A stretch of 64,000 nucleotides of DNA from Wickerhamiella versatilis. Taxonomy: Eukaryota. Shown piece after piece: positions 32,817 through 57,018 of this stretch. Below the pieces are notes generated by a model. It was given only the letters and a program-made list of their open reading frames with translations. It searched no databases and was not told the origin of the DNA. Position 1 is the stretch's first letter; each line of letters opens with the position of its first letter. The stretch covers positions 62,001 through 126,000 of the forward strand of contig JAQOWU010000008.1 of the NCBI GenBank assembly GCA_030867685.1, read 5' to 3'. A program made the position numbers and the translations under genes.

Positions 32817-35225
32817 TCAATCAAGCCACTTGTACTGATACCCTGGGTGATCGCTTGGCAAATGATCATGGCCAAAAACCTGGCCTCTTGCGGTTTCAGT
32901 GCTGTCATAGTCATCGTGAAATATGCCGCGCCGCTGGAGCTCCGGCACAAGCAAGTTAACGATATCCTCAAAAGACCCAGGAGATGTAATATGGGCAAGA
33001 TTGAACCCATCAAGATCTGATTCGGTCGCCCAACGTTCCAACTCATCTGCAACAGTAGTTGGGCTACCGACTATCTTGCGGCTAAAGCCGCCAAGAATCA
33101 ATTCCTTGGCAATATCTGCTTTAGTCCACCGTCTGGAATCGTCAATACTAAGTACAGTTGACTGAATGGCGGGCGGACCTTCGAAACGAAAGTCATCATC
33201 GTCACGAAATTTCGCCAGATCACTCCCTGTCCATCCACCAAAAAGGGTAAGAGCACCCTCAACATCCGCATAAGACAAGAAATCATTATACTTCTGCTGC
33301 GCCTCTTCATCTGTTTCTCCTAAAATCAAAGCAACGCTAACTACGATCTTGATTTGGTCGGCACCGCGCCCCTGCTCTTCAGCTTGTTTTCTGAGGTCCG
33401 CTACCGTTTGACCTGTACGAGCAGAATTAAATCCGGATATAAAGATCAGCTCGCTGTGCTTTGTACCAAATTCACTTCCGCGCTTCGAGGTCCCTGCTTG
33501 GAAAAGTAAGGGTGTACGCTGAGGAGATGGCTCATTGATATGCACACCATCAACCTTGAAATACTTTCCTTCATGGTGGATAGGCCTTACTTTATTCACA
33601 TCAGCAAATATCCCTTGAGCTTTATCGCGGATGACAGCGTCGTCCTTCCAGCTGGATTCCCAGAGCTTATAGCAGACTTCTAGGAACTCTTCTCCTTTGC
33701 CATACCTTTCATCATGATCAATCTGCGTTTCCAGACCATACATTTGGGCTGCACTTTCTAAGTAAGAAGTTACTATATTCCAGATAACCCGTCCATTTGA
33801 CAAATGATCTAAGGTCGAAAACCTTCGAGCTACGGTGTAGGGATGCTCATAAGTTGTGCTTGTTGTCACACCAAAGGCAAGTTTTTCTGTCACATTAGCC
33901 ATTGCAGATACGGCTAGAGCAGGATCCCCAACTGGAAACTGAGTACCAGTTGTGACAGCAGGCCTAATGTTCCTTGGACCTCCATATACATCGTAGGGTC
34001 CAAGCGTATCAGCGATAAAAAGTGCATGTATTTTTCCCCGTTCAAGCAATTTCGCTAAGTTCACCCAGTATTCAACCTTGTTATAGTTGGAGGTGTCACT
34101 ACTTGGATGCCTCCATAAACCGGGTGACAGATGGTTTGGCGTCGTCATTGCAAACGCATTTAAAATGAGCTTTTTCTGCAGGCGGGATTTCTTCGGTTGA
34201 TGTAACCGTTCCCGCTCCACCTGTTCGTCGTAATTTGGATAATCGGTATAGCCTTTTGCATCCTGACTGTATAACGTACTTCTATCGTATTTGGCGAGAG
34301 GGAGATTATCCTGCAAGCGCCTTACAAGGTCAGGATTCGATATGAAATACCTACCAAAAGCTATCAGTAGCTCAGGATCATCCTTCACGGCTTCTGCTGC
34401 TGTCTTTGGAGTGAAGCCACCAGCCCTAATAAGTGCTCCCGACCAAATATGGCGGATAAAGTCCGAGTTCTCAATGGAATTCCGAGGCTCTACGAGATGC
34501 ACATATGCGATTTCTCTCCCCTCCTTCTTCTTTTGTTCCAACCTTGCTAGTAAGTAAGAAAATATGGGGATAGGGCCATAGGCATAGTTGCTATCAAATG
34601 GAGAAAGGCGCAATCCCACTTTTGAGGACCCTATGGCATCTGATACCGCGTCTATGATGTCAAAGAATACCCTCACTTTGTTCTCGATTGAGCCACCATA
34701 TTTATCGTCCCTATTGTTATCGTCATAGAGGAATCGATTTAACAAGCAGCCGTGAGCTCCGTGAATCTCGACACCATCAAATCCAGCAGCAATGGCATTC
34801 CTAGCAGCCCTTACATGGTCCTTCACAACATCGTTTATATCGGCTGTGGAAAGCTCATCTATTGGGGCACCTACTGGCTCAGCTTTACCTCCATAGTTTT
34901 TACCAGCCGAATACCTTCCAATCGACCACAGTTGTAGAAATATTAAAGATTTCTGCTGATGTACAGCACCAGTGACTTTCTTCCAACCTTTTATCTGATC
35001 ACTAGTGTATATGCCTGGTGTCGACGAATGTGCCTCGTCATCATCATTAATTAAGGCACCCGCAATTAGCAGGGTTCCGGCGGCTTGGGCTCGCTGCCTG
35101 TAGTACTCCGTATCCAATCCGCTTGGAACTCCTTTCTCGTTGGCTCGCAATCGGGTGAGTGGTGGCAAGACAATTCTATGGCCTAGCTCGACGTCACCTA
35201 GACCCACCGGCTCAAAAAGAGACAT
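32817..35225 (-). CDS. Fusion of Old Yellow Enzyme (aa ~1-335) and NtaA/DszA/DmoA-type FMNH2-dependent monooxygenase (aa ~350-802)
   Basis: OYE motifs PLTRLRA, AGFDGVEIHGAHGC, YGGSIEN, FGRYFISNPDL, GYTDYP; then LNAF...GLWRHP, LFIAD, ARRFSTLDHLSNGRVIWNIVTS, PSPQRTP.LFQAG.S, VPELQRRG; one uninterrupted ORF. Confidence 0.9.
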   Translation of the reverse strand: MSLFEPVGLGDVELGHRIVLPPLTRLRANEKGVPSGLDTEYYRQRAQAAGTLLIAGALINDDDEAHSSTPGIYTSDQIKGWKKVTGAVHQQKSLIFLQLWSIGRYSAGKNYGGKAEPVGAPIDELSTADINDVVKDHVRAARNAIAAGFDGVEIHGAHGCLLNRFLYDDNNRDDKYGGSIENKVRVFFDIIDAVSDAIGSSKVGLRLSPFDSNYAYGPIPIFSYLLARLEQKKKEGREIAYVHLVEPRNSIENSDFIRHIWSGALIRAGGFTPKTAAEAVKDDPELLIAFGRYFISNPDLVRRLQDNLPLAKYDRSTLYSQDAKGYTDYPNYDEQVERERLHQPKKSRLQKKLILNAFAMTTPNHLSPGLWRHPSSDTSNYNKVEYWVNLAKLLERGKIHALFIADTLGPYDVYGGPRNIRPAVTTGTQFPVGDPALAVSAMANVTEKLAFGVTTSTTYEHPYTVARRFSTLDHLSNGRVIWNIVTSYLESAAQMYGLETQIDHDERYGKGEEFLEVCYKLWESSWKDDAVIRDKAQGIFADVNKVRPIHHEGKYFKVDGVHINEPSPQRTPLLFQAGTSKRGSEFGTKHSELIFISGFNSARTGQTVADLRKQAEEQGRGADQIKIVVSVALILGETDEEAQQKYNDFLSYADVEGALTLFGGWTGSDLAKFRDDDDFRFEGPPAIQSTVLSIDDSRRWTKADIAKELILGGFSRKIVGSPTTVADELERWATESDLDGFNLAHITSPGSFEDIVNLLVPELQRRGIFHDDYDSTETARGQVFGHDHLPSDHPGYQYKWLD

Positions 35226-39551: not shown

Positions 39552-40099
39552 TGGCAACGTCTTCTATTTCTCTGCGGGTGCTTCGAAGAATCTTCTAAAA
39601 GAAATCAATCTGCAATCAAACCTTACGTTCATTATTCCACTGTCCTTCGGTTGGTCCTGATTGTATGTGTCATTATGGTAGCTACGAAATCATCGCCACG
39701 GAAAAATCATTTGTCGTCCTTAGACTAGCTCATTTCAATTTATCGCCTCTCGGAATTATCCCTCGAACAAACACGCATTAGTCACAATTGACTAACATAT
39801 TTAGAATGACGCGTCACGCGTAGCGAAGTAGATATCGCATTCTTCGCTTTAGGGTAAGGTGAGACATTCTCAGCAAACATGGCAGCTTTGTAGCTGTGCT
39901 TTTATGGGACATCTTACGTTTTTTTTAAGGAGGTTTGGTCAACTGAATCTAGACTTGTCTTGTCGAGTGATTCTCGACATCATAACTTCCTCTGCGAGTG
40001 AGACCCACACCCACACACCACGCGTCTCGATCGCTAGTCACTTTTCCTCTTATTAACTTACGGAATTCAAAAGCGTTTACATTCAGCCTAGTTCGACAC

Positions 40100-41095
40100 A
40101 TGGACGTTTCAAAGATCTCGATAACAGCCATCTGTGTTCTACTAAGCCTCGTAAGATGTTTTGAAATAAGTTTTGAGACCATTGCCCCTTATACTAAAAC
40201 TCAAGAGCCTGGGCCAGCAGCGACTCCATCAGCTATCGCCAGTCTACCTTGGGAAGAGTCGTATTTTACCAAAACAGTTGCTTCTGTGCAGAACGCCTAT
40301 TGTTCGTCAGAGTTCAATCAAATTGGTATGCAAATTGGTGATCAGACTCTCCTAAACTCAATCACATACCAAGGGAACGATAGTATGCGGGTGAACATAT
40401 ATCATTCACAAAGCCTTGGCATAATCTTGGCGTATATGGGAACAAATGGGAAGAGTATTGCATCTGTTTTAATTGACGTTGATCTCTTACTTGTTGAGCC
40501 GGATGAGGCATTGGGAATTCCTTCAAATGTGAGGGTGGGCCAGGGCTGGCAGCAGCAGTGGAACAATTCTTGGCCACAGGTAGAGTCAGCACTTGAAGAT
40601 ATACTTCAGACTTACCAGAATGTTTCCATTCAGGTTATAGGTCATAGTCAAGGCGCAGCGGTAGCTCAGCTCGCTGCTCTTGCCATCAACAAGAGCTTCC
40701 CGCAGAAGATAGATCGCGTGGTTGGTTATGGATGCCCTAGAGTTGGGAATGCAGATTACGCACAAGCATTTGACAGCATTTTTAAAGGGCGCTATACTGA
40801 TGTTACCAATGGTGCGGACCCTGTTTGGTACTATGTTCCAAGGCTGGGTTACACGCATCCCTCAGGGGTGGTATGGATAAATCCCGCGAATTCCACAAAC
40901 TACTTCTACTATGTTGATGGCGAGGATAATGGGCCTTCTCATAGTCTACCAGAGTATTTTAGCCCTGCTAGTGTTCAAAGATTTCCTTACGTTGACCTAA
41001 GCGACCACGAGGGCATTTACATGCACTCGTCATTAGGGGGAACCAGCAACGAATACGGAGATGGCCCTTGTCCGGCGGAGATAGGAGGCTATTGA
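40100..41095 (+). CDS. Secreted class 3 lipase, Malassezia SMG1-like
   Basis: Signal peptide, RVNIYHS.SLGI, GTN, GHSQG, PRVGN, GY.HPS..VWI.P.NST, DH.GIY, CPA.IG. Confidence 0.85.
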   Translation: MDVSKISITAICVLLSLVRCFEISFETIAPYTKTQEPGPAATPSAIASLPWEESYFTKTVASVQNAYCSSEFNQIGMQIGDQTLLNSITYQGNDSMRVNIYHSQSLGIILAYMGTNGKSIASVLIDVDLLLVEPDEALGIPSNVRVGQGWQQQWNNSWPQVESALEDILQTYQNVSIQVIGHSQGAAVAQLAALAINKSFPQKIDRVVGYGCPRVGNADYAQAFDSIFKGRYTDVTNGADPVWYYVPRLGYTHPSGVVWINPANSTNYFYYVDGEDNGPSHSLPEYFSPASVQRFPYVDLSDHEGIYMHSSLGGTSNEYGDGPCPAEIGGY

Positions 41096-42891: not shown

Positions 42892-43122
42892 TGGAATGCC
42901 GTATACTTGCATATAATGGCAACTGTAACCAGTATTAGACACGCATTTGACGCGTTTTCTCATTCTAGCCAGCAATTTGTTAGGTATCATCCGGTAACAA
43001 TGAGGATTTAACACCAACCCAAGAACCTGATGAAGATCGGCCTAACCCTACGCTTTTGAATCATAATCATACTTATAGCTAATATATCTTAGTAAAGAAA
43101 TCTGTTCGGACCGCTACTTTCC

Positions 43123-43797
43123 ATGAGATATTTTACGATTCTTTGTTTAGCTCTGTGCAGGGCTGACGACAAGTCTTGTCCGCCAGAGGACACCATCAAG
43201 AAGCTCGTCGCCGACGTTGGAAATAACGTCCAGAACTCTCTGCCCCAGATCGCCGATATTGTCAAGGATATTGCAGATATCGTGGGGGTTGCAACTGGCG
43301 TTACTACTTGCTTCTCCGACAATGTTGGTAGCTGCATTAGCCAACTCTTGCAATCAGGTGGCGTGGTGAGTGACATTGTGGGCCTTGTCGGCGACGGAAC
43401 TGGGCTTTTCTCCGATTTGGTATCTGGTATTGAAGGCGTTCCATGGGCCTGTCTCGCTGAGGACGGCACTGAATTCGCAAGCCAGTGTATTAAGGACTTA
43501 GAACCTGCGTTCTCGCCATTTCTTGATGAGCTGAAAAAGCTTCTGGAGGTCGACGAGCAGTTAGTCAAGGAAATAGTTAAGCTTCTGTTTTCGAAAATTC
43601 CGGGACCAATAAAAAACGAGATAAAGTCGCCAATCTCCGTGTTTTCTCAAAATATTACCGATGGAGTTTATCCCCTTGTCAATGAACTTAACTCCATAAA
43701 ATCTGTATCTCCAGTAAATGATGCATTTGGAGCTCAAATTTATGATGTTGCATCCGCTCTCAACAACCTTACGGGAAGCCTCAGCGCATTGCTCTAA
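43123..43797 (+). CDS. Secreted Cys-containing amphipathic protein, probable distant paralog of the 41890-42615 gene
   Basis: Signal peptide; shared P.I.DI.KDI and C.....SCIS.L...GG patterns. Confidence 0.75.
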   Translation: MRYFTILCLALCRADDKSCPPEDTIKKLVADVGNNVQNSLPQIADIVKDIADIVGVATGVTTCFSDNVGSCISQLLQSGGVVSDIVGLVGDGTGLFSDLVSGIEGVPWACLAEDGTEFASQCIKDLEPAFSPFLDELKKLLEVDEQLVKEIVKLLFSKIPGPIKNEIKSPISVFSQNITDGVYPLVNELNSIKSVSPVNDAFGAQIYDVASALNNLTGSLSALL

Positions 43798-44421
43798 TTT
43801 CGTTTAGCCAGCTAATCTTATTGCCCCTACCTGATCAACCCCAGTTATGATATTGGTTCTGCTGGTTCCAGGCTGTTATTCTCATTTTACCAAAGTAGCT
43901 TCGCATCTACCCGCCCATAATGTGGTTAGGACATATGCCTAGAGATTCCTTAATTTTGCTTTCGTAGTGCTAGACAAACTGATATAAATATATGAGTGGG
44001 CTGTCTTTTTCTTATAATGACCATCTCCTTTAGGCATTCTGTACTGACTAGCACTGAACCCTTTCGCCGCACTTTCCGTCAAACAAGCGCTCAGCAAATG
44101 TACCAACTGACGCTGCACATGATGTTACACAGATCACAACAAGGGAGTAACAAAGTGTTTCAGGTGATTCTAACAGCGTTGGGTGTTCAAAAGGTCGTCT
44201 TTGATTAGCGTAATAATTTCCGAAATGCGGGTACTTCTGAGTAATTGTGAATGTGAAAGACTACAATAGGACTATTAAATACCGTTCTGAGTATCTGTAT
44301 CTCCTCCTACAGAGTATTCCCGTATTTTCCCATCTACAAACCCTATTTCCTCTTATGGATTTATAAGCACCCCCGCACAACCGTAATTATAATTTCTGTA
44401 ATTGAACGCCTGAATCCCCTC

Positions 44422-47400
44422 ATGATTTATAAATGCCCATTTGGTGATTTCAGGCAATTTTCCGAAGGAAATGCTGTCAATGGACTCTTCGAGTCCCCCT
44501 TTCAAACTTCAGAAAGACTAAACCGAGTGCTTTACGTTGATGGTATAACGTCAGATAGCATAACATTCAGCGAGTACAAAAAGCTCATTTTCCGTATTGC
44601 TGCACTTTTCCGCAGTGATTATGGTATTTCACAAGGAGATATTGTTTGTTTGTACGCACCAAATTCAATTTACACGGCCGGAATTCATTTGGGCACAATC
44701 GCGTTGGCTGCCATAGTGAGTCCTGCTAGTACTATGTACAATGCAACAGAGCTCGCTCATCAGATCAGGATGACTCGTCCTCGTGTTCTTATAACATCTG
44801 ACGAGGGGTCTCAAACGGCAAGGGAAGCTATCAGAGAGAGTAGTGTCAGCGAGATACAGATAGTCACATTTAGTGAGCTGCTGCCAAAACTTGAAGCACT
44901 TGCTAAAGCTCCCTCAGCAGCTATGGTTTCGCCAGTTGAAGTAGATGCTGCCCACTATCCTGCATATTATACTTTCTCGTCAGGGACTTCAGGATTACCC
45001 AAAGGTGTGATAACTACTCATAGAAATATTTTGACAAATATCCTTCAACAATTTTTCAACCATGACACCCCATATGTTGCAAATGATCATTGTGTTGGTG
45101 CTGTACTACCAATGAGCCACATATTTGGTCTTAACACCTTCATTTGGGCTGCTATTTATCGAGTACACACAATCGTGGTTTTTCCCAAATTTGACCTTGT
45201 AACGTTTCTCGAAAAGTGCTCAAAATATGATGTGGATGTAGTTACGCTCGTGCCTCCTATTGTGCTGCTTTTTGGAAAACATCCATTACTGGATAGCTAT
45301 CCGAAACTCAAGCAGAACCTGCGATATTTGAGGTGTGGTGCCGCACCACTGTCAGTATCTACACAAGCACTTGTTAAGAAGAGATTGCCTAATTGCTTTA
45401 TTCTGCAAGGATATGGGCTTACCGAAACATCCCCTTCTACCCATTCAGGGTCTCAGTTTGAGGCAGAACACAACTCTGCAACAGTTGGCTGGCTCATACC
45501 TGGGACTGAGGCTCGCCTTGTCGATCCTGAAACAGGTAAGGACTCAAGCAGGGGTGAATTGTGGGTTCGAGGCCCCCAGATCACGAAAGGATACTTGAAT
45601 GATGAGAAAGCAACAAAAGAGGCGTTCAGTGAGGGTGGGTGGTTCAAGACAGGCGACGTTGCCGTTGTGGATGAGTCGGGGCAATTCGAAATTGTGGACC
45701 GTATCAAGGAGCTTATCAAGTCAAAAGGACACCAAGTGGCACCAGCAGAGCTTGAAAGTGTGCTACTTTCGCATCCTAATGTTTTAGATGCTGCTGTCAT
45801 TGGAATTCCAGATGAGAACCAGACTACTGAGCACCCCCGGGCATTCTTGGTGTTAAAACCAGACACAGACATCAAAGAGATACTTGGGTGGTTCAACGAA
45901 AAGGTTGCACAACATAAACGCCTTTCAGGTGGGGTTATCGCTGTTGATAAGGTACCCAAGTCCTCGTCGGGTAAGATTTTACGTCGGGTTCTTCGAGATG
46001 CCAGTATCACTCCCCAAGAAATCAAGGGGGCGGTTCCTGATGGGGACCGAGAGAAGTTAGTATATGCTCTCAAACATGATGCAGAGCAGAAATCAATACT
46101 GACAACTGTGATCCGTGTATCCTCTGGGATCTTAGGTTCCATGGAAAATTTGAGCGGTTCATCGAATTTTACTGAAATTGGTGGTGACTCGCTTTCTGCC
46201 TTGACGTTTTCTAACATGCTTCAAGAAATATATGACATATCTGTGCCCGTCGCCTTGATCATTTCTCCTACTTCTGATTTCAAGTCACTTGCGAATTATA
46301 TCGAAGGTCAGCAAAGCGGTAAAGCAGGAAAGCCGACATATGCGAAAATTCATGGAAGGAATGTAGAAAAAGTTTCTCCCACAGATCTAGCCTTAAATAA
46401 GTTCGTTGATAGCGCTACTCTTTCGCGTGCCTCGTCTTTGCCTGACGTTAAAGGCGAACCTCGCACAGTCCTGTTGACCGGAGCCACGGGATTTCTTGGT
46501 CGACACCTTGCCTTAGAATTATTGCAACGGTTGGCAAAAATTGGTGGTAAGCTTATTTGCTTGATCCGGGCAAAAAATGCTTCAGAGGGATTCGACCGAC
46601 TCTATCGGTCGTTTGATAAGGGCGATCCTAGTCTACTAGCACATTTTCGTGATTTAGCGGCTAGTAATCTTGAGGTGGTAGTCGGTGATAAGTCTGAGGA
46701 GCAACTTGGCTTGAAAAATGATACCTGGCAAAGGCTATCACGCGATGTCGATATGATTGTCGATTCAGCTGCTATGGTAAATCATGTACTGCCCTATGAT
46801 CAGCTCTTTGAACCAAACGTCGTAGGTACAGCTGAATTGATTCGGTTTGCAATTACCTCAAGGCTCAAGCAATTTGTCTATGTTTCAACAGTGGCGGTTG
46901 GAAAAGGCGTGTCGCGTGAAAAATTCACGGAGGATATTGACGTGAGAGACATGTGTCCTTCGCGAAGAATAGACAATAGTTATGCGAGTGGCTATGGTCA
47001 TAGTAAATGGGCGGGAGAAGTCTTGCTAAGACAAGCACATGACCAATTCCGGCTTCCTGTGTCAGTATTTCGGTGTGGAATGATATTGGCAAATACGACG
47101 TACTCAGGTCAGCTAAATGAACAGGACATGTTTACTCGCCTAGTTTTGAGCTTGATTGCTACAGGCAAAGCACCAAAATCTTTCTACGAATTGGATACTG
47201 AGGGAATGAAGCAGCGGACTCACTATGATGGGTTACCGGTTGATTTTGTCTCAAAAGCCATTTGCTCCCTGACATTACCACGAGAAGGATATGCTACATA
47301 TCATGTGATGAACCCCCACGACGACGGGATTGGGCTAGATGAGTACGTTGATTGGCTGATCGCATTTGGCTACAATATAGACCGTGTTGATGAGTATTCG

Positions 47401-47649
47401 GACTGGCTTCAGCAATTTGAAAACAGCCTTCATGATCTGCCGCCTTGGCAGCAATCTGCATCGTTATTGCCACTTTTACACAGCTATAGGGAACCATTAA
47501 AACCTACCTGTGGATCCATTGCTTCGACGAAGCGCTTTTGGGAAGCTTTACATCAGAAAAAGTTTACTTCAGATTTTGAGAGCCCCTATATAAATCAGCC
47601 CTTGATCGGTAAGTATGCCAATGACCTGCATCTTCTTGGACTGATATAG
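44422..47649 (+). CDS. Chimeric carboxylic acid reductase / NRPS-like enzyme (4CL-like A domain, T domain, R domain)
   Basis: A domain: FSSGTSGLPKGV, QGYGLTETSP, GWFKTGD, DRIKELIK.KG.QVAPAELE, PKSSSGKILRR. T domain: IGGDSLSAL (Ser590). R domain: TGATGFLG, VNHVLPY..LF.PNV.GTAELIR, GYGHSKWAGE, HYDGLPV, HVMNPHDDGIGLDEYVDWL. Confidence 0.93.
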   Translation: MIYKCPFGDFRQFSEGNAVNGLFESPFQTSERLNRVLYVDGITSDSITFSEYKKLIFRIAALFRSDYGISQGDIVCLYAPNSIYTAGIHLGTIALAAIVSPASTMYNATELAHQIRMTRPRVLITSDEGSQTAREAIRESSVSEIQIVTFSELLPKLEALAKAPSAAMVSPVEVDAAHYPAYYTFSSGTSGLPKGVITTHRNILTNILQQFFNHDTPYVANDHCVGAVLPMSHIFGLNTFIWAAIYRVHTIVVFPKFDLVTFLEKCSKYDVDVVTLVPPIVLLFGKHPLLDSYPKLKQNLRYLRCGAAPLSVSTQALVKKRLPNCFILQGYGLTETSPSTHSGSQFEAEHNSATVGWLIPGTEARLVDPETGKDSSRGELWVRGPQITKGYLNDEKATKEAFSEGGWFKTGDVAVVDESGQFEIVDRIKELIKSKGHQVAPAELESVLLSHPNVLDAAVIGIPDENQTTEHPRAFLVLKPDTDIKEILGWFNEKVAQHKRLSGGVIAVDKVPKSSSGKILRRVLRDASITPQEIKGAVPDGDREKLVYALKHDAEQKSILTTVIRVSSGILGSMENLSGSSNFTEIGGDSLSALTFSNMLQEIYDISVPVALIISPTSDFKSLANYIEGQQSGKAGKPTYAKIHGRNVEKVSPTDLALNKFVDSATLSRASSLPDVKGEPRTVLLTGATGFLGRHLALELLQRLAKIGGKLICLIRAKNASEGFDRLYRSFDKGDPSLLAHFRDLAASNLEVVVGDKSEEQLGLKNDTWQRLSRDVDMIVDSAAMVNHVLPYDQLFEPNVVGTAELIRFAITSRLKQFVYVSTVAVGKGVSREKFTEDIDVRDMCPSRRIDNSYASGYGHSKWAGEVLLRQAHDQFRLPVSVFRCGMILANTTYSGQLNEQDMFTRLVLSLIATGKAPKSFYELDTEGMKQRTHYDGLPVDFVSKAICSLTLPREGYATYHVMNPHDDGIGLDEYVDWLIAFGYNIDRVDEYSDWLQQFENSLHDLPPWQQSASLLPLLHSYREPLKPTCGSIASTKRFWEALHQKKFTSDFESPYINQPLIGKYANDLHLLGLI

Positions 47650-47905
47650 AAGAACATTTCTTATCGCAGCTTATCGTATTTTGGGCTGCAATAAGTCGGT
47701 TATCAGCTGGGTTCTGTAAGGTACAGAACATAGGAGGTCTGCATCATAGCAACTTTTTTTCACAACATAGTTAGAAAACTAGCGAAATACGATGGCCAGA
47801 TAACTAGCAAGTAAGAATGACCGAGACGAACCAAGATATATGCGTTACCTGTGAATATAATCTTACCCCGGTTGTTTTTAGTAGTAAGCGCAATGAGAAA
47901 AGCAG

Positions 47906-48313
47906 TCAAACCAGCAAATAGCTAAGGATATCACACAAGAATTAAGTGCTTTAATGTCGTTTGCACCGTTAAAGAACCCAGACGCAGCCCAATGCAGGAT
48001 AGCCCACTGGCAATAACACCCATTTAGGTAATGAGTATATCTTAGAAATCCTCCCGTTTTCCCCGCACAAAAGAACTTGGGAACAAATTGATACTCATTA
48101 AATCAAACCAGCAAATAGCTAAGGATATAACACAAGAATTAAAATGCTTTAATGTCGTGTCGTGTGCACCTCATCTATCGTTCAAGACCCCAGGCGCAAC
48201 ACGGTCGAAAGTTGCGTTAATTCCCATTTAGGTAATGTGTATATCTTAAAGATCTTCGGGATAGGCAACCCCCAGTCGCACATTAGAGGTGGGGAACGAA
48301 TCGACGCTCATTA
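47906..48313 (+). repeat. Degenerate tandem duplication of a ~200-bp non-coding unit
   Basis: TCAAACCAGCAAATAGCTAAGGATAT.ACACAAGAATTAA at 47906 and 48103; both units contain CCCATTTAGGTAATG and end ...CTCATTA. Confidence 0.85.
47991..48009 (-). repeat. Dispersed element, left part (reverse)
   Basis: Minus strand CAGTGGGCTATCCTGCATT. Confidence 0.7.
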
Positions 48314-48544: not shown

Positions 48545-49638
48545 ATGGTGAGAGAGATAAAGAAAATAACATTGCTCTTATTCCTATCCGGGGAGTAATG
48601 GCCAGTATTGAGGCGTCTACAATAGCGCCCTACGATTCATCCACAACCGATATACCTAGCGCCTATAGCGGTGCTGTTTCCCAGAGTTATGTCGAGTCTC
48701 ACGGTCAACATATTTCTTATTATGAGTATGGAAACTCGTCAAATCCTACGGTGATCATGACAGGCGGGTGGCCCTCAGGGGCAAGCGCACTTAGCGCTTT
48801 CGCTGTGGGGTTGGCCAATGCCGGCGCCCATGTAGTGCTTTATGATACGCTTGGATCAGGAAGTAGCTCACATCCATGGGGATCATGGGCCTATAGTATA
48901 ACAGACTTAGCTGATGAAATGGGTGCTGTTATTGAGGCGGCTGCACCGAACAAGAAGGTTGCTACTTTTGGTGAGGCTTGGACGCCATTTATCTCCTCAG
49001 AATATTGTGCTATGCACCCAGATGATGGTGCTATCGATACAATATTTTCGATAGGGGTCCCGTGCTTTGACTTGAGCAATCAAGCGTTGATAAATCAAAC
49101 CAGAAACCTCGTCAACGACCAGCAGAACCTCACGCGAGTTATATCGCAGTGGGCATCTCTCGCTTACATGGGTTTGATCTCATTCCCTGCCGTTCCAGAA
49201 GCACTTATAGATAGTGGTGTTCCACAATGGATCGTTAACGAATTGAATGATGTTTTCAAGGCTTTAAACACCTCTGATTCAGAAGTTTTGAGTAGTATTT
49301 TGGGCCAAAGTCTGGCGGATGGTTTGTTGGAGTCCTTAAAATATGATAAGTCTGATACAAGTCATGGGATGCAGAAATATGAGTGGTATGTCCAGAACCG
49401 CCTTGTTCCTGGAATCATTAGCGGCAAGATGTATCGGCAGTATTTGCCCGTGGACAGGCTGAAGGTGTGGATGCTGAAAAATGATAACATCGAGACTGAC
49501 ATTATGCTTGAAGGCCTCGGAGAGCACATTTCCGCGGAACCTAATATCACTTACTTGGATAGTGGGCATTTCGGCTGGGGAGCGCATGGAAATTCCAAAA
49601 TAATGCGATCTACCATCATAGAGTGGATAGGGGCATAG
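48545..49638 (+). CDS. Alpha/beta hydrolase (EphD-like N-terminal domain type) with altered catalytic motif; signal peptide is out of frame
   Basis: ORF 48598-49638: PTVIMTGGWP, VVLYD..GSG.S, Y....LAD....VI, GH near the C-terminus. Upstream ATG 48545 gives MVREIKKITLLLFLSG, which joins the ORF if one base is added at the G4 run 48590-48593. Confidence 0.7.
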
Positions 49639-49789: not shown

Positions 49790-50389
49790 TCAATTCGGAT
49801 GTTCTTGTAATTTTGAAGCATTCTACAGCGATCGCTGAGGCGGTAGAAGGAGGCTAGATTAATGCCACTGATAGTGATTTCCCGTAACTTATTTATCTAA
49901 AAGTAGGTGATTTCGGCGGAGTTACCTAACCTCATTAAAAATCACCTTGGCATGCCCAAAGAGATACCATGGAGCATTTTTCCCTCATGATAAAGGAGAT
50001 TACTTTAAATGATTTTGTTAAAGAAAGAGGCGATGTGATGGGCGGCGATTTATTACGCAAAAGTTGAAGCGATCTCGTTCACTACCTTCACCTTAATCAA
50101 GAAGAATTTCCAGAAAAAGAGATGTTGAAAGAGAATCTCAATGATGCTATTTTGGCTGTTTTAACCTTATAGCGATATTTAAGAGCACATTTGTTATGCT
50201 TTCGATTTACTTCATCTAAGAATATTGCATGAGGTACCTAATATTCTGACCGAAATGTATTACTGGCGTGATATTCGACTCCAAATCTGCTCTTATCGAC
50301 TTTATATCATACTCCAGGTGATTTTATACTTATTATACATTGCGAGACATGGCTTATATCTTATTAACAGGTCTGATTACAAACTAGAT

Positions 50390-50851
50390 ATGATGGTCGA
50401 AGACAATAGTGACGAGAGGTTCTTCTCGCTGGCAGTAGAGCAGGCTTATGCGAGCTATGAAGAAGGCGGGATTCCTATTGGTGCAGTTCTGGTCACTGCA
50501 GATGGCAAAGTCATAGGGAGTGGGCGCAACGAAAGGGTCCAGAAGCGCTCTGCTATCCTGCACGCTGAAATGGAGGCTATTGAAAATGCAAGAGAGCTTC
50601 CTGCGGCATGTTTAAAGGGTTCCACAATGTATACCACACTTAGCCCCTGCGACATGTGCACGGGTGCCTGTTTGCTCTATGGCGTTAGTAGGGTTGTTCT
50701 GGGTGAAAATCATACCTACCTAGGAGGAGAGCAGCTACTAAGGGATAAGGGTATTGAGGTAAAAAACATGAATAATGATGAATGCTGTAAACTAATTCAG
50801 AACTACGCTGCTAGCCATCTGGAAATTTGGAATGAACAGGCGTGGTCATAA
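50390..50851 (+). CDS. FCY1: Cytosine deaminase (Fcy1-like)
   Basis: EGGIPIGA, G.GRN.RVQ..SAILHAE, TMYTTLSPCDMCTGAC, WNE; ATG at 50390. Confidence 0.9.
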   Translation: MMVEDNSDERFFSLAVEQAYASYEEGGIPIGAVLVTADGKVIGSGRNERVQKRSAILHAEMEAIENARELPAACLKGSTMYTTLSPCDMCTGACLLYGVSRVVLGENHTYLGGEQLLRDKGIEVKNMNNDECCKLIQNYAASHLEIWNEQAWS

Positions 50852-53302: not shown

Positions 53303-54436
53303 ATGCTCTTCTCATCGCTAATTGCTATCTCTCTTACTGCTGCTGCACCTGCGGGTGAAGAAGCGCTTTTAGAGAAGAGGTCTTCTTTCCCTATTCCTTA
53401 TATAGGAGAATCGTTGAGGGACTATATGCAACAGTTGGTGGGATGGGTAGTTCAACTGCCGCTCATAACCGACGTTGGTAATTTTGATCGCTTAGTATCG
53501 GCAATTCCCACCACTGACATCAGCTTCAACCTCAATTTCTTGCAGCATACATCAAAGACGGATGATATTCCAGGTTATAACACTGACTTTGAACCGGTTG
53601 ATGGTATCGACTCAGCATCGGTTAGATGGTTGGCTGAGGTTGACGGGCGCACAAAGGATGACCCCGTTGTCTTGTACTTTCATGGCGGGGGGTATGTTTT
53701 AGGCTTCAACCCTGCTTTCGCCTCATTTTGGGAAAACGTGTGGAAGGACTACAATACTAGAAGTGACAGGCTCTCCGTCCTTCTTGTTGACTACGCGATA
53801 GCGCCGAATGAAGGCGTTTGGCCGAAGCCTCTACAGCAAGCTGCTGGTATCTATAACAAACTAAGTGAAACTTCAGACAACGTTATTTTAGCGGGTGACA
53901 GTGCTGGTGGACATCTCGCCTTGAGCCTTTTGCGTCATATCAAGTACCCGTGGGAAAATGTCCCCGAGATATCGGCTGGTAAGCCACAGGGACTCGTAGG
54001 CCTTAGTCCTTGGGTGAACATATGGCCTGATCAAGGCAAGGGCATAAAGAACGGCACCTATGCCACCTATGATGGTCTGGATATTTTGAATGCAGGTCTC
54101 TCGTCAGCCATGGGGAACATTTCTGTCCCCGATCTTGAAACACGCAACTCTTCTCAGATGAACTTTTTCAAGGACTATATTAACTGGGAGGAGATTCTTC
54201 CAGACTCCGCGAAAACATTCATTTCTTACGGTGATCAAGAGGTGTTGAAAGGGGATATCGAGACATGGTTAAACATCACCAATCTGCAGGATTCTCAGGC
54301 CACTATTTACCGGGACCTAGCTGGAAATGATAAAGCAATACTCTCCTCGGGGACCCACGATAATGTGGTTGTAAGCGCAAAGAACTCCAAGGGATATGAT
54401 AATCTTGTCGATTTCTTGACCTCCAACTTCGCGTGA
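53303..54436 (+). CDS. Secreted HSL-family esterase (Say1/Mug180-like), copy 1
   Basis: Signal peptide with EKR site, LYFHGGGY, GDSAGG, LSPWV, E.L, H near the C-terminus. Confidence 0.88.
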   Translation: MLFSSLIAISLTAAAPAGEEALLEKRSSFPIPYIGESLRDYMQQLVGWVVQLPLITDVGNFDRLVSAIPTTDISFNLNFLQHTSKTDDIPGYNTDFEPVDGIDSASVRWLAEVDGRTKDDPVVLYFHGGGYVLGFNPAFASFWENVWKDYNTRSDRLSVLLVDYAIAPNEGVWPKPLQQAAGIYNKLSETSDNVILAGDSAGGHLALSLLRHIKYPWENVPEISAGKPQGLVGLSPWVNIWPDQGKGIKNGTYATYDGLDILNAGLSSAMGNISVPDLETRNSSQMNFFKDYINWEEILPDSAKTFISYGDQEVLKGDIETWLNITNLQDSQATIYRDLAGNDKAILSSGTHDNVVVSAKNSKGYDNLVDFLTSNFA

Positions 54437-55887: not shown

Positions 55888-57018
55888 ATGCGCGCCTCGT
55901 CTCTAATTGCTATCGCTTTCACTGCTGCCGCACCTGCAAGTGAGGCGCTAGTAGAGAAGAGATCTTCTTTCCCTATTCCTTATATAGGAGAATCTTTGCG
56001 AGATTACCAGCAAAAATTCGTGGGATGGATAGTTCAGCTGCCACTCATAACAGACGTTGGTAATTTTGATCGCTTAGTATCAGCAATCCCCACCAATGAC
56101 ATCAACTGGAACCTTAATTTCTTGCAGAATACATCAAAGACGGATGATATGCCAGGTTATAACACTAACTTTGAACCGGTTGATGGTATCGACTCAGCAT
56201 CGGTCAAATGGATGGTTGAGGTTGATGGACGCACAAAGGATGACCCCGTTGTTTTGTACTTCCATGGCGGCGGATATGTTTATGGCTTTGAACCTTCTTC
56301 TGCATCGACTTGGCAAGAAATATGGGAAGATTTCTCTACGAAGAGTGAGAGGTTGTCCATCCTTCTGGTCGACTACGCGATAGCGCCAAAGGAAGGCGTT
56401 TGGCCAAAGCCTCTACAGCAAGCTGCTGCTATCTACAACAAACTAAGTGAAACTTCAGACAATATTGTTTTGGTGGGTGACAGCGCTGGTGCACATCTCT
56501 CGCTGAGCCTTTTGCGTCATATGAAGTATCCATGGGAAAGTGTCCCCGAGATATCGGCCGGTAAGCCACAGGGGTTTATAGGCTTCAGTCCCTGGGTAAA
56601 CATATACCCTAATCAAGGCAATGGCACAAAGAACGGCACGTATGTCACATATGAAGGTCTGGATATTTTGAGTGCAGATCTCTTGTCAGCCATGGGGAAC
56701 ATTTCTGTCCCCGATTTTGAGACACGCACGTCCTCTCAGATGAACTTCTGGAAGGACTATATTAATTGGGAGGAGATTCTTCCAGACCCTGCCAAAATAT
56801 TCATTTCCTACGGTGACCAAGAAGTGTTGAAAGGGGATATCCTGACATGGCTAAACATCGCAAATTTGCAGGATTCTCAAGCGACCATCTACCGGGACCT
56901 AGCTGGAAATGAGAATACATCAACTCCCTCGGGGACCCACGATAATCTGTTTCTGAGCGGAAGAACTTCCAAAGGATACGGTGAGCTAATCGATTTCTTG
57001 ACGCACAACTTTGCATGA
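55888..57018 (+). CDS. Secreted HSL-family esterase (Say1/Mug180-like), copy 2
   Basis: Colinear with copy 1 along its whole length; HGGG, GDSAG. Confidence 0.88.
   Translation: MRASSLIAIAFTAAAPASEALVEKRSSFPIPYIGESLRDYQQKFVGWIVQLPLITDVGNFDRLVSAIPTNDINWNLNFLQNTSKTDDMPGYNTNFEPVDGIDSASVKWMVEVDGRTKDDPVVLYFHGGGYVYGFEPSSASTWQEIWEDFSTKSERLSILLVDYAIAPKEGVWPKPLQQAAAIYNKLSETSDNIVLVGDSAGAHLSLSLLRHMKYPWESVPEISAGKPQGFIGFSPWVNIYPNQGNGTKNGTYVTYEGLDILSADLLSAMGNISVPDFETRTSSQMNFWKDYINWEEILPDPAKIFISYGDQEVLKGDILTWLNIANLQDSQATIYRDLAGNENTSTPSGTHDNLFLSGRTSKGYGELIDFLTHNFA

Follow-up and report, generated by a model that had tools for sequence, protein, structure and literature searches.

Reading frame and domain organization

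The window analyzed here is the whole stretch of 64,000 nucleotides taken from contig JAQOWU010000008.1 of the yeast Wickerhamiella versatilis. On its forward strand, at positions 44422-47649, it contains a complete gene of 1075 codons and a stop codon, uninterrupted by any other stop and for which no intron is required. The encoded protein, hereafter the hybrid protein, begins with MIYKCPFGDF, which agrees with the starts of its stand-alone homologues. It combines an adenylation (A) half of the type of 4-coumarate-CoA ligases (4CL) and luciferases with a carrier (thiolation, T) and reductase (R) half of the type of bacterial carboxylic acid reductases (CARs). A preliminary description of this DNA had proposed that a T-R module acquired by horizontal gene transfer was grafted onto a host A domain. 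Separate BLAST searches and separate trees of the two halves bear this out, and a two-source origin of the gene is thus supported, as judged from sequence comparison. All features described below for this gene lie on the + strand.

The adenylation core (44521-45597, residues 34-392) is recognized by the Pfam AMP-binding family with an E-value of 8.9e-72. It displays the A3 motif SSGTSGLPKG (residues 186-195), the A5 motif YGLTE (331-335) and the A8 hinge. The C-terminal subdomain (45748-45975, residues 443-518; Pfam AMP-binding_C, E 5.6e-16) is closed by the A10 lysine K518 in PKSSSGK, which is invariant in our alignment A1. When compared with the NCBIfam collection, the A half matches models of FadD/4CL-type ligases at about 300 bits. 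The preliminary description had placed a 4CL-like domain at about residues 1-525 and had noted that the protein is devoid of a type 1 peroxisomal targeting signal (PTS1). We confirmed both points: the A half ends at PKSSSGKILRRVLR (residues 512-525, nucleotides 45955-45996) and the C-terminus of the protein is -GLI.

A linker that contains the join (46000-46053, residues 527-544) was delimited from alignment A1, the C-termini of homologues, an AlphaFold model and a contig bridging the join. It precedes the carrier (peptidyl carrier protein, PCP) domain (46129-46302, residues 570-627; Pfam PP-binding, E 4.7e-07). The phosphopantetheine serine S590, encoded at 46189-46191, lies within GGDSL, in FTEIGGDSLSAL, and G587, G588, D589 and S590 are invariant across alignment A1. 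The thioester reductase domain, of the bacterial CAR type, extends over 46465-47643 (residues 682-1074), where the thioester reductase model TIGR01746 scores 304.4 bits and exceeds its curated cutoff of 213.35. Pfam NAD_binding_4 covers residues 685-947 (E 2.5e-63). This domain contains the Rossmann motif TGATGFLGR (686-694), T823, the pair Y858-x3-K862 and the motif NPHDDG (964-969). The NCBIfam CAR model NF041592 (EC 1.2.1.30) gives 884.4 bits, its best stretch being residues 546-1075 on model positions 629-1160. The motifs quoted earlier as those of mycobacterial and nocardial CARs were all located where they had been announced: FTEIGGDSLSALTFSNMLQEIYDISVPVALIISP in the carrier domain (residues 583-616), PTYAKIHG (637-644), TVLLTGATGFLGR (682-694), GDKSEEQLGL (755-764), HYDGLPV (934-940), HVMNPHDDGIGLDEYVDWL (961-979), SLLPLLHSY (1014-1022) and KYANDLHLLGL (1064-1074). 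We also considered Lys2, the alpha-aminoadipate reductase, and rejected it: its model TIGR03443 scores 180.5 bits for a cutoff of 1030.1.

Separate relatives of the two halves

A search of shorter proteins with the A half gave 7864 matches, of which the best 120 were listed. The best relatives listed are stand-alone proteins of 536-573 residues, headed by P0246 at 60% identity and followed by others at 51-45%. Among these matches, the best named ones all come from Dipodascales-type yeasts, namely Trichomonascus vanleenenianus (45%), Sugiyamaella lignohabitans (45%, named 'Pcs60p'), T. ciferrii, Geotrichum candidum, Magnusiomyces paraingens, Limtongia and Dipodascopsis; identities amount to 43-45% for Trichomonascus, Sugiyamaella, Geotrichum and Magnusiomyces, and chytrids, Mucorales and bacteria then follow at 38-44%. 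The A half is 47-48% identical to P0004 and P0005, two full-length relatives described below, and 35-43% identical to A-T-R proteins of cyanobacteria. With the A domains of mycobacterial CARs, identity in local BLAST does not exceed 26%, nor the score 110 bits. Comparison with solved structures gave the same picture: 4CL2 (5bsw, 282 bits, E 7.7e-83) and CG6178 (280 bits) are matched best, and no CAR A domain is found among the best 60 of the 218 matches. When the AlphaFold model of the A half was submitted to Foldseek, it overlaid CG6178, luciferases and 4CL, with no CAR A domain in the listed ranks.

The trees agree with these identities. In a quick A-domain tree of 85 rows, the chimeras fall within a yeast clade of 48 rows supported by a Shimodaira-Hasegawa approximate likelihood ratio test (SH-aLRT) value of 99; basidiomycetes adjoin it, and bacteria, together with the cyanobacterial A-T-R proteins, are on the opposite side. 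A careful subtree of 37 rows recovered a yeast clade of 34 rows with support of 100/100. The origin of the A half, previously described as fungal, is therefore supported by the trees and can be narrowed to a lineage of peroxisomal enzymes from budding yeasts that activate acyl groups.

The T-R half has quite different relatives. A protein search gave 5540 matches, and 118 of the best 120 listed are bacterial proteins of the CAR/FadD9 type, 55-60% identical over 93-100% of the query; the remaining two are the chimeras P0002 and P0003. The organism names that appear among these listed matches are Mycobacterium or Mycolicibacterium only. Identity to mycobacterial CARs is 56-59% in local BLAST, and 56-60% is seen with the CARs of Mycobacterium, Mycolicibacterium and Nocardia; it is 58% and 53% to P0004 and P0005, and only 25-30% to the cyanobacterial A-T-R proteins. 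Among solved structures, the M. marinum CAR 5mso is matched at 636 bits (E 4.5e-190) and the R domain of a non-ribosomal peptide synthetase (NRPS) from M. tuberculosis, 4dqv, at 517 bits. In Foldseek, the T-R model overlays the PCP-R didomain of the Segniliparus rugosus CAR (5msv) with a TM-score normalized to the target of 0.96-0.97, a root-mean-square deviation of 1.7 Å and 50% identity. Using the profile of alignment A1, we also scanned one genome per prokaryotic species and obtained at least 594 relatives among 596 stretches. The best 80 of these come from Mycobacterium, Mycolicibacterium, Mycolicibacter, Nocardia, uncultured Mycobacteriaceae and unclassified Actinomycetota.

In a quick T-R tree of 96 rows, the six eukaryotic rows are united in a single clade (SH-aLRT 100), and in a careful tree of 52 rows the five eukaryotic rows do so as well (100/99). 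This clade is sister (94/85) to a clade of 19 rows (99/94) made up of CARs from Mycobacteriaceae and Nocardia and of the terminal T-R modules of long NRPS-type proteins, such as those of Mycobacterium sp. MUNTM1 and M. insubricum. Both are enclosed by successive clades of 30 rows (98/98), 37 rows (97/95), 41 rows (98/97) and 46 rows (98/92), whose named members are the CARs of Mycolicibacterium arabiense, Gordonia aichiensis and M. farcinogenes. Since the successive outgroups are proteins of 1135-1177 residues with CAR architecture, a CAR gene of Mycobacteriales is the most likely donor. The earlier proposal of a CAR-type T-R module starting at about nucleotide 46050 is thus upheld, with 56-60% identity to the CARs of Mycobacteriales and a position nested in their tree. 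A transfer in the reverse direction, from yeast to bacteria, was also considered and rejected, the eukaryotic clade being nested in a wide bacterial diversity, with at least 594 prokaryotic relatives versus four eukaryotic clusters.

Seven NRPS-type mycobacterial proteins of 2549-4462 residues (P0366, P0369, P0372, P0375, P0377, P0385 and P0392) have their terminal T-R inside the CAR T-R clade. The T-R cassette has therefore shifted between architectures in bacteria too.

The join, the proposed origin and the alternatives

A search with the whole protein gave 1825 matches among 7994 scored candidates. Among the best 120 listed, only four are full-length relatives, P0002 (95%), P0003 (91%), P0004 (52%) and P0005 (50%), all 1072-1075 residues long. 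In the Logan/ENA data, the four chimera clusters correspond to seven sequences, 50-99.8% identical to the hybrid protein and located on contigs of up to 1.35 Mb. We fetched 182 proteins with a T-R half at least 40% identical; a 4CL-like A domain was present in seven of them only, all eukaryotic. The listed matches of the T-R protein search gave a consistent result, with a 4CL-like A domain in two of 95 assessable proteins (P0002 and P0003). When 1.84 billion representatives were searched by HMMER with the T-R half, 12705 matches were obtained, and among the best 150 listed, 105 have at least 450 residues before the T-R half, with a 4CL-like A domain in one of these 105 (P0005).

In alignment A1 the sequence is of the yeast type up to GKILRRVLRD and of the CAR type from about LKHDAEQKSILTTV. 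The resemblance to CARs starts at about L545, where LKHDAEQKSILTTVIRVSSGILG can be compared with the CAR consensus LRxxGAxxPVLxTVxRAAxALLG, and the join occupies the identical alignment position in P0003, P0004 and P0005. In the AlphaFold model, built from a 15-row alignment with a mean predicted local distance difference test (pLDDT) value of 77.3, residues 529-544 have a pLDDT below 50 and the lowest inter-domain confidence. Past the join point, the stand-alone yeast enzymes have about 20 further residues, with a PTS1-like tripeptide at the very end (-AKL, -ARL, -SKL or similar). We inspected 17 of these C-termini against the consensus [SAC][KRH][LM]: eight fit, eight are one residue off and one is two off. 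The chimeras end in -GLI, -NLI or -ELL. Since the stand-alone tail with its PTS1 is replaced at the join, the fusion would have removed the peroxisomal signal.

We next turn to the question of whether this gene is a genuine yeast gene. GC content and GC content at third codon positions are 0.448 and 0.389 for the A half and 0.442 and 0.403 for the T-R half, 19 other long ORFs (open reading frames) of the window having GC contents of 0.436-0.494. Codon usage correlates with the background of the window at 0.92 for the A half and 0.88 for the T-R half, versus 0.70-0.89 for other ORFs. CTG codons in the T-R half fall at leucine positions that are invariant in bacterial CARs. The adjacent genes are of eukaryotic type, with two Say1_Mug180 genes, an Arrestin_N gene, a major facilitator superfamily gene and a class 3 lipase gene. 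A 1090-nucleotide contig from an independent food-fermentation metagenome covers 45699-46788 with a single differing letter. It runs across the join, a point that the preliminary description had asked to have confirmed. The stretch was found in the sequencing runs of 13 studies, and runs of an isolate contain 83% of its sampled words, with depth in 30 of 30 bins. Among 40 listed allele differences, 28 are at the third codon position, nine at the first and three at the second, and the relatives at 50-52% identity have retained a length of 1072-1075 residues and all catalytic residues. Conserved length, conserved catalytic residues and excess of third-position changes suggest that the hybrid gene is under purifying selection.

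Over 44000-48100, contigs from isolates and metagenomes come in pairs, with copies differing by 0-1 versus 22-30 letters per approximately 300 nucleotides. Such pairs point to two diverged alleles or to a hybrid genome, in keeping with the 91-95% identity of P0002 and P0003.

Altogether, we consider it probable that this is an intact, vertically inherited yeast gene born from the fusion of a CAR fragment, and that it encodes a hybrid acid-to-aldehyde enzyme acting as follows. A fragment of a Mycobacteriales CAR gene comprising the A-T linker, the carrier, the reductase and the natural C-terminus would have become joined, in frame, to the 3' end of the yeast's own gene for a peroxisomal 4CL/Pcs60-like enzyme, taking the place of about 20 C-terminal residues of this enzyme, PTS1 included. 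The yeast-type A domain would adenylate a carboxylic acid with ATP, and the acyl group would be loaded on the phosphopantetheine arm at S590 instead of free CoA. The bacterial-type R domain would then reduce the thioester with NADPH, using T823, Y858 and K862, and release the aldehyde. Because the PTS1 is lost, the enzyme would probably act in the cytosol. We assume that a host Sfp-type phosphopantetheinyl transferase (PPTase), for instance one serving Lys2, could activate it. As the catalytic residues of the three domains are intact, ATP/NADPH-dependent reduction of an acid to an aldehyde is the likely function predicted for the protein. Among solved structures, 4CL (282 bits) and a long-chain fatty-acyl-CoA synthetase (280 bits) are equally close, an oxalate-CoA ligase being more distant at 188 bits.

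Other explanations have been envisaged. The possible source runs of the window are metagenomes, and one could thus suspect an assembly chimera or a bacterial contamination in a metagenome-derived contig. However, both halves are host-like throughout in composition and codon usage, the same architecture is found in seven proteins of four clusters, and the stretch is covered in isolate runs and its join spanned by an independent contig, so that this reading is effectively refuted and we give it almost no credence. It could also be imagined that the whole gene was received from a bacterium in which a 4CL-like A domain already preceded a T-R half of CAR type. Bacterial A-T-R proteins with a FadD/4CL-like A domain do exist, for instance in cyanobacteria, and their A domains resemble the A half approximately as much as the chytrid and Mucorales enzymes do. 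Their T-R halves are nevertheless far more distant, and the A half sits inside the yeast stand-alone enzymes, apart from all bacterial rows. Neither the prokaryote-genome search nor the matches listed for the whole-protein, T-R and HMMER searches included a bacterial protein that combines the two halves. The preliminary description had itself named full-length bacterial homologues of single origin as the finding that would contradict it, and none was present among the 182 fetched proteins. We therefore regard a ready-made bacterial gene as very improbable.

Several observations weigh against a yeast gene born from one fusion and coding for an active CAR. The whole-protein score with NF041592 lies below the 1300-bit equivalog cutoff of this model. 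The eukaryotic rows were flagged in every tree for an unusual amino-acid composition; we would expect a bias of this kind to separate AT-rich yeast sequences from GC-rich actinobacteria rather than to bring them together. The bootstrap of the careful T-R tree was short of fully settled (correlation 0.983), and of ten neighboring clusters that were looked up, five carry organism names. In one RNA run, of which about 24% was read, a single read among 11.0 million records fitted in part, with 90-95% likeness, which speaks neither for nor against expression. Finally, in the careful A tree, the stand-alone P0246, which bears a PTS1 (-AKL), is sister to a group made up of the A domains of the hybrid protein, P0002 and P0003 (99/98), and those of P0004 and P0005 branch apart within the same 14-row clade (98/98), on a branch of their own. 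A single simple fusion is thus not what the best A tree displays, and the T-R half could have been joined to a yeast A domain more than once, or gene conversion by a stand-alone paralogue could later have replaced the A domain of one chimera lineage. On the other hand, the T-R halves of the chimeras form a single clade in both trees and the join is common to all aligned chimeras, which makes one fusion the simplest reading. Forcing the chimeric A domains to be monophyletic costs 13.9 log-likelihood units and is not rejected by the approximately unbiased (AU) test (p-AU 0.127). Repeated fusion or conversion is thus unlikely in our opinion, although it deserves to be kept in mind. A related question is whether the chimera, while real, releases an aldehyde at all: it could perform a four-electron reduction to the alcohol, serve a dedicated pathway, or be a silent and drifting gene. 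Four-electron reduction to alcohol has been reported for terminal R domains of mycobacterial NRPSs, the sister bacterial clade includes terminal T-R modules of NRPS-type proteins of 1850-4462 residues, and the NRPS R domain 4dqv is well matched. Besides, no RNA support was seen in the one run sampled, no RNA run is listed among those containing the stretch, and the near-equal scores of 4CL and of the long-chain fatty-acyl-CoA synthetase make the substrate unreadable from sequence. Against these points, the proteins that branch successively outside the eukaryotic clade are built as CARs, the aspartates of NPHDDG are retained together with the T/Y/K residues known from bacterial CARs, and drift is disfavored by ORFs that are intact at only 50% identity and by the third-position excess. 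A product other than an aldehyde, or a gene without function, appears to us rather improbable.

Neighboring genes and comparison with known enzymes

Eight ORFs neighboring the hybrid gene gave no match with the flanks of 80 bacterial CAR loci; there is therefore no sign of co-transfer. No tRNA gene is present in the window. Directly upstream of the hybrid gene, a 224-residue ORF (43123-43797, +) with a hydrophobic N-terminus, MRYFTILCLALC, has no Pfam or NCBIfam match and is overlapped by an antisense ORF at 43089-43568. About 950 nucleotides downstream lies an alpha/beta hydrolase gene (48598-49638, +) for which the flanks of these 80 loci yielded no counterpart. The first 220 residues of its product are similar to the N-terminal region of the bacterial model PRK05855 at 84.9 bits, far under the cutoff of 455. 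The hybrid gene is located amid genes for ester and lipid hydrolases, including this one, a class 3 lipase (39998-41095) and two adjacent Say1_Mug180 steryl acetyl hydrolase paralogues (53303-54436, +, E 1.7e-30; 55888-57018, +, E 5.3e-29). A 208-residue ORF at 50225-50851 (+) gives a match of the cytidine/deoxycytidylate deaminase type, with a score of 61 bits for the TadA model, below the cutoff of 150. Farther away, an 802-residue ORF (32817-35225, -) combines an Old Yellow Enzyme-type domain (Pfam Oxidored_FMN, E 1.4e-77, residues 2-310) with a bacterial-type flavin mononucleotide (FMN)-dependent monooxygenase of the NtaA/DmoA family (residues 355-776; TIGR03860, 492.7 bits for a cutoff of 279.7). 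It may be a second fusion in the window with a bacterial-type domain.

Type I bacterial CARs are represented by the enzymes of M. marinum (5mso/5msu), Nocardia iowensis (5msc) and S. rugosus (5msp/5msv). The hybrid protein shares with them the A-T linker helix, the carrier and the reductase, at 56-60% identity to those of Mycobacteriaceae over approximately 525 residues. It also shares the GGDSL serine, TGxxGxxG, the Thr/Tyr/Lys residues, NP(H/Y)DDG and the C-terminus ending in DLxLLGL. In contrast, its A domain is not of the CAR type, being at most 26% identical, and lacks in alignment A1 the extra stretches of their A domains; according to PMC5826065, an extra A-domain stretch is specific for type I. 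Furthermore, the hybrid gene is found in a yeast genome. On account of its different A-domain type and of a score below the curated cutoff, the predicted protein is classified outside the type I CARs.

With the yeast peroxisomal 4CL/Pcs60-like enzymes, the hybrid protein has in common its A half, which belongs to their lineage in the tree, is 43-60% identical and keeps A3, A5, A8 and A10; the plant 4CL2 (5bsm) scores 282 bits with this half. The yeast enzymes are stand-alone proteins of 536-573 residues with PTS1-like ends and are presumably acyl-CoA makers, whereas the hybrid protein has 1075 residues and a T-R half in place of their tail. The A-T-R proteins of the cyanobacteria Nostoc, Calothrix and Scytonema (1024-1057 residues, annotated 'thioester reductase domain-containing') have the same domain order as the hybrid protein, and a FadD/4CL-like A domain with AMP-binding_C that is 35-43% identical. 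However, their T-R halves are only 25-30% identical and their A domains group with bacterial ligases, outside the yeast clade. At the level of sequence, these proteins represent the same plan, assembled independently.

Fungal CARs of types II-IV and NRPS-like enzymes (NcCAR, AtCAR, TvCAR), as well as Lys2, have the A-T-R order and a fungal host in common with the hybrid protein. PMC6813634 reports that fungal A-T-R CARs depend on a PPTase. In PMC5826065, fungal CARs are described with a serine in the catalytic triad, a glycine instead of the regulatory aspartate and a hydroxylic residue instead of the A10 lysine, and a threonine in the triad, the aspartate and the A10 lysine are given as marks of bacterial rather than fungal CARs. 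The hybrid protein possesses T823, D967/D968 and K518, and thus does not display the signature of fungal types II-IV, fungal CARs being compared here through their published description. A survey of fungal CARs lists 84 of them in seven clades, and the word 'bacterial' is absent from its main text (PMC9605436). In the literature, as partly accessible, neither a CAR from yeast whose T-R half is bacterial nor a natural 4CL-CAR hybrid was found, and the supplementary tables of surveys of horizontal gene transfer in yeasts may list the gene.

Bacterial genes are known in yeasts. On the other hand, it is, to our knowledge, uncommon for a transferred bacterial domain cassette to be fused in frame to a host enzyme of a eukaryote and to be conserved in that form. 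The hybrid gene would thus represent a transfer that yielded a new enzyme architecture and not merely an added gene, with the loss of a targeting signal in the same step. One could go further and ask whether the hybrid protein represents a fifth CAR type, which arose in budding yeasts by cross-kingdom transfer of a mycobacterial T-R cassette, redirects a substrate of a peroxisomal acyl-CoA ligase to a cytosolic aldehyde and has been maintained by selection in yeast lineages whose proteins are by now only about 50% identical; we would give this broader proposal an even chance. CARs are widely used in aldehyde production and much work is devoted to swapping their domains. A natural hybrid kept in several lineages would mark an A-T boundary that tolerates exchange, just past the A10 motif GKILRR.LR, and would supply a compact A domain, possibly with other substrate preferences. 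If true, it would be a natural proof that the T-R didomains of type I CARs work with a foreign, compact A domain of the 4CL type.

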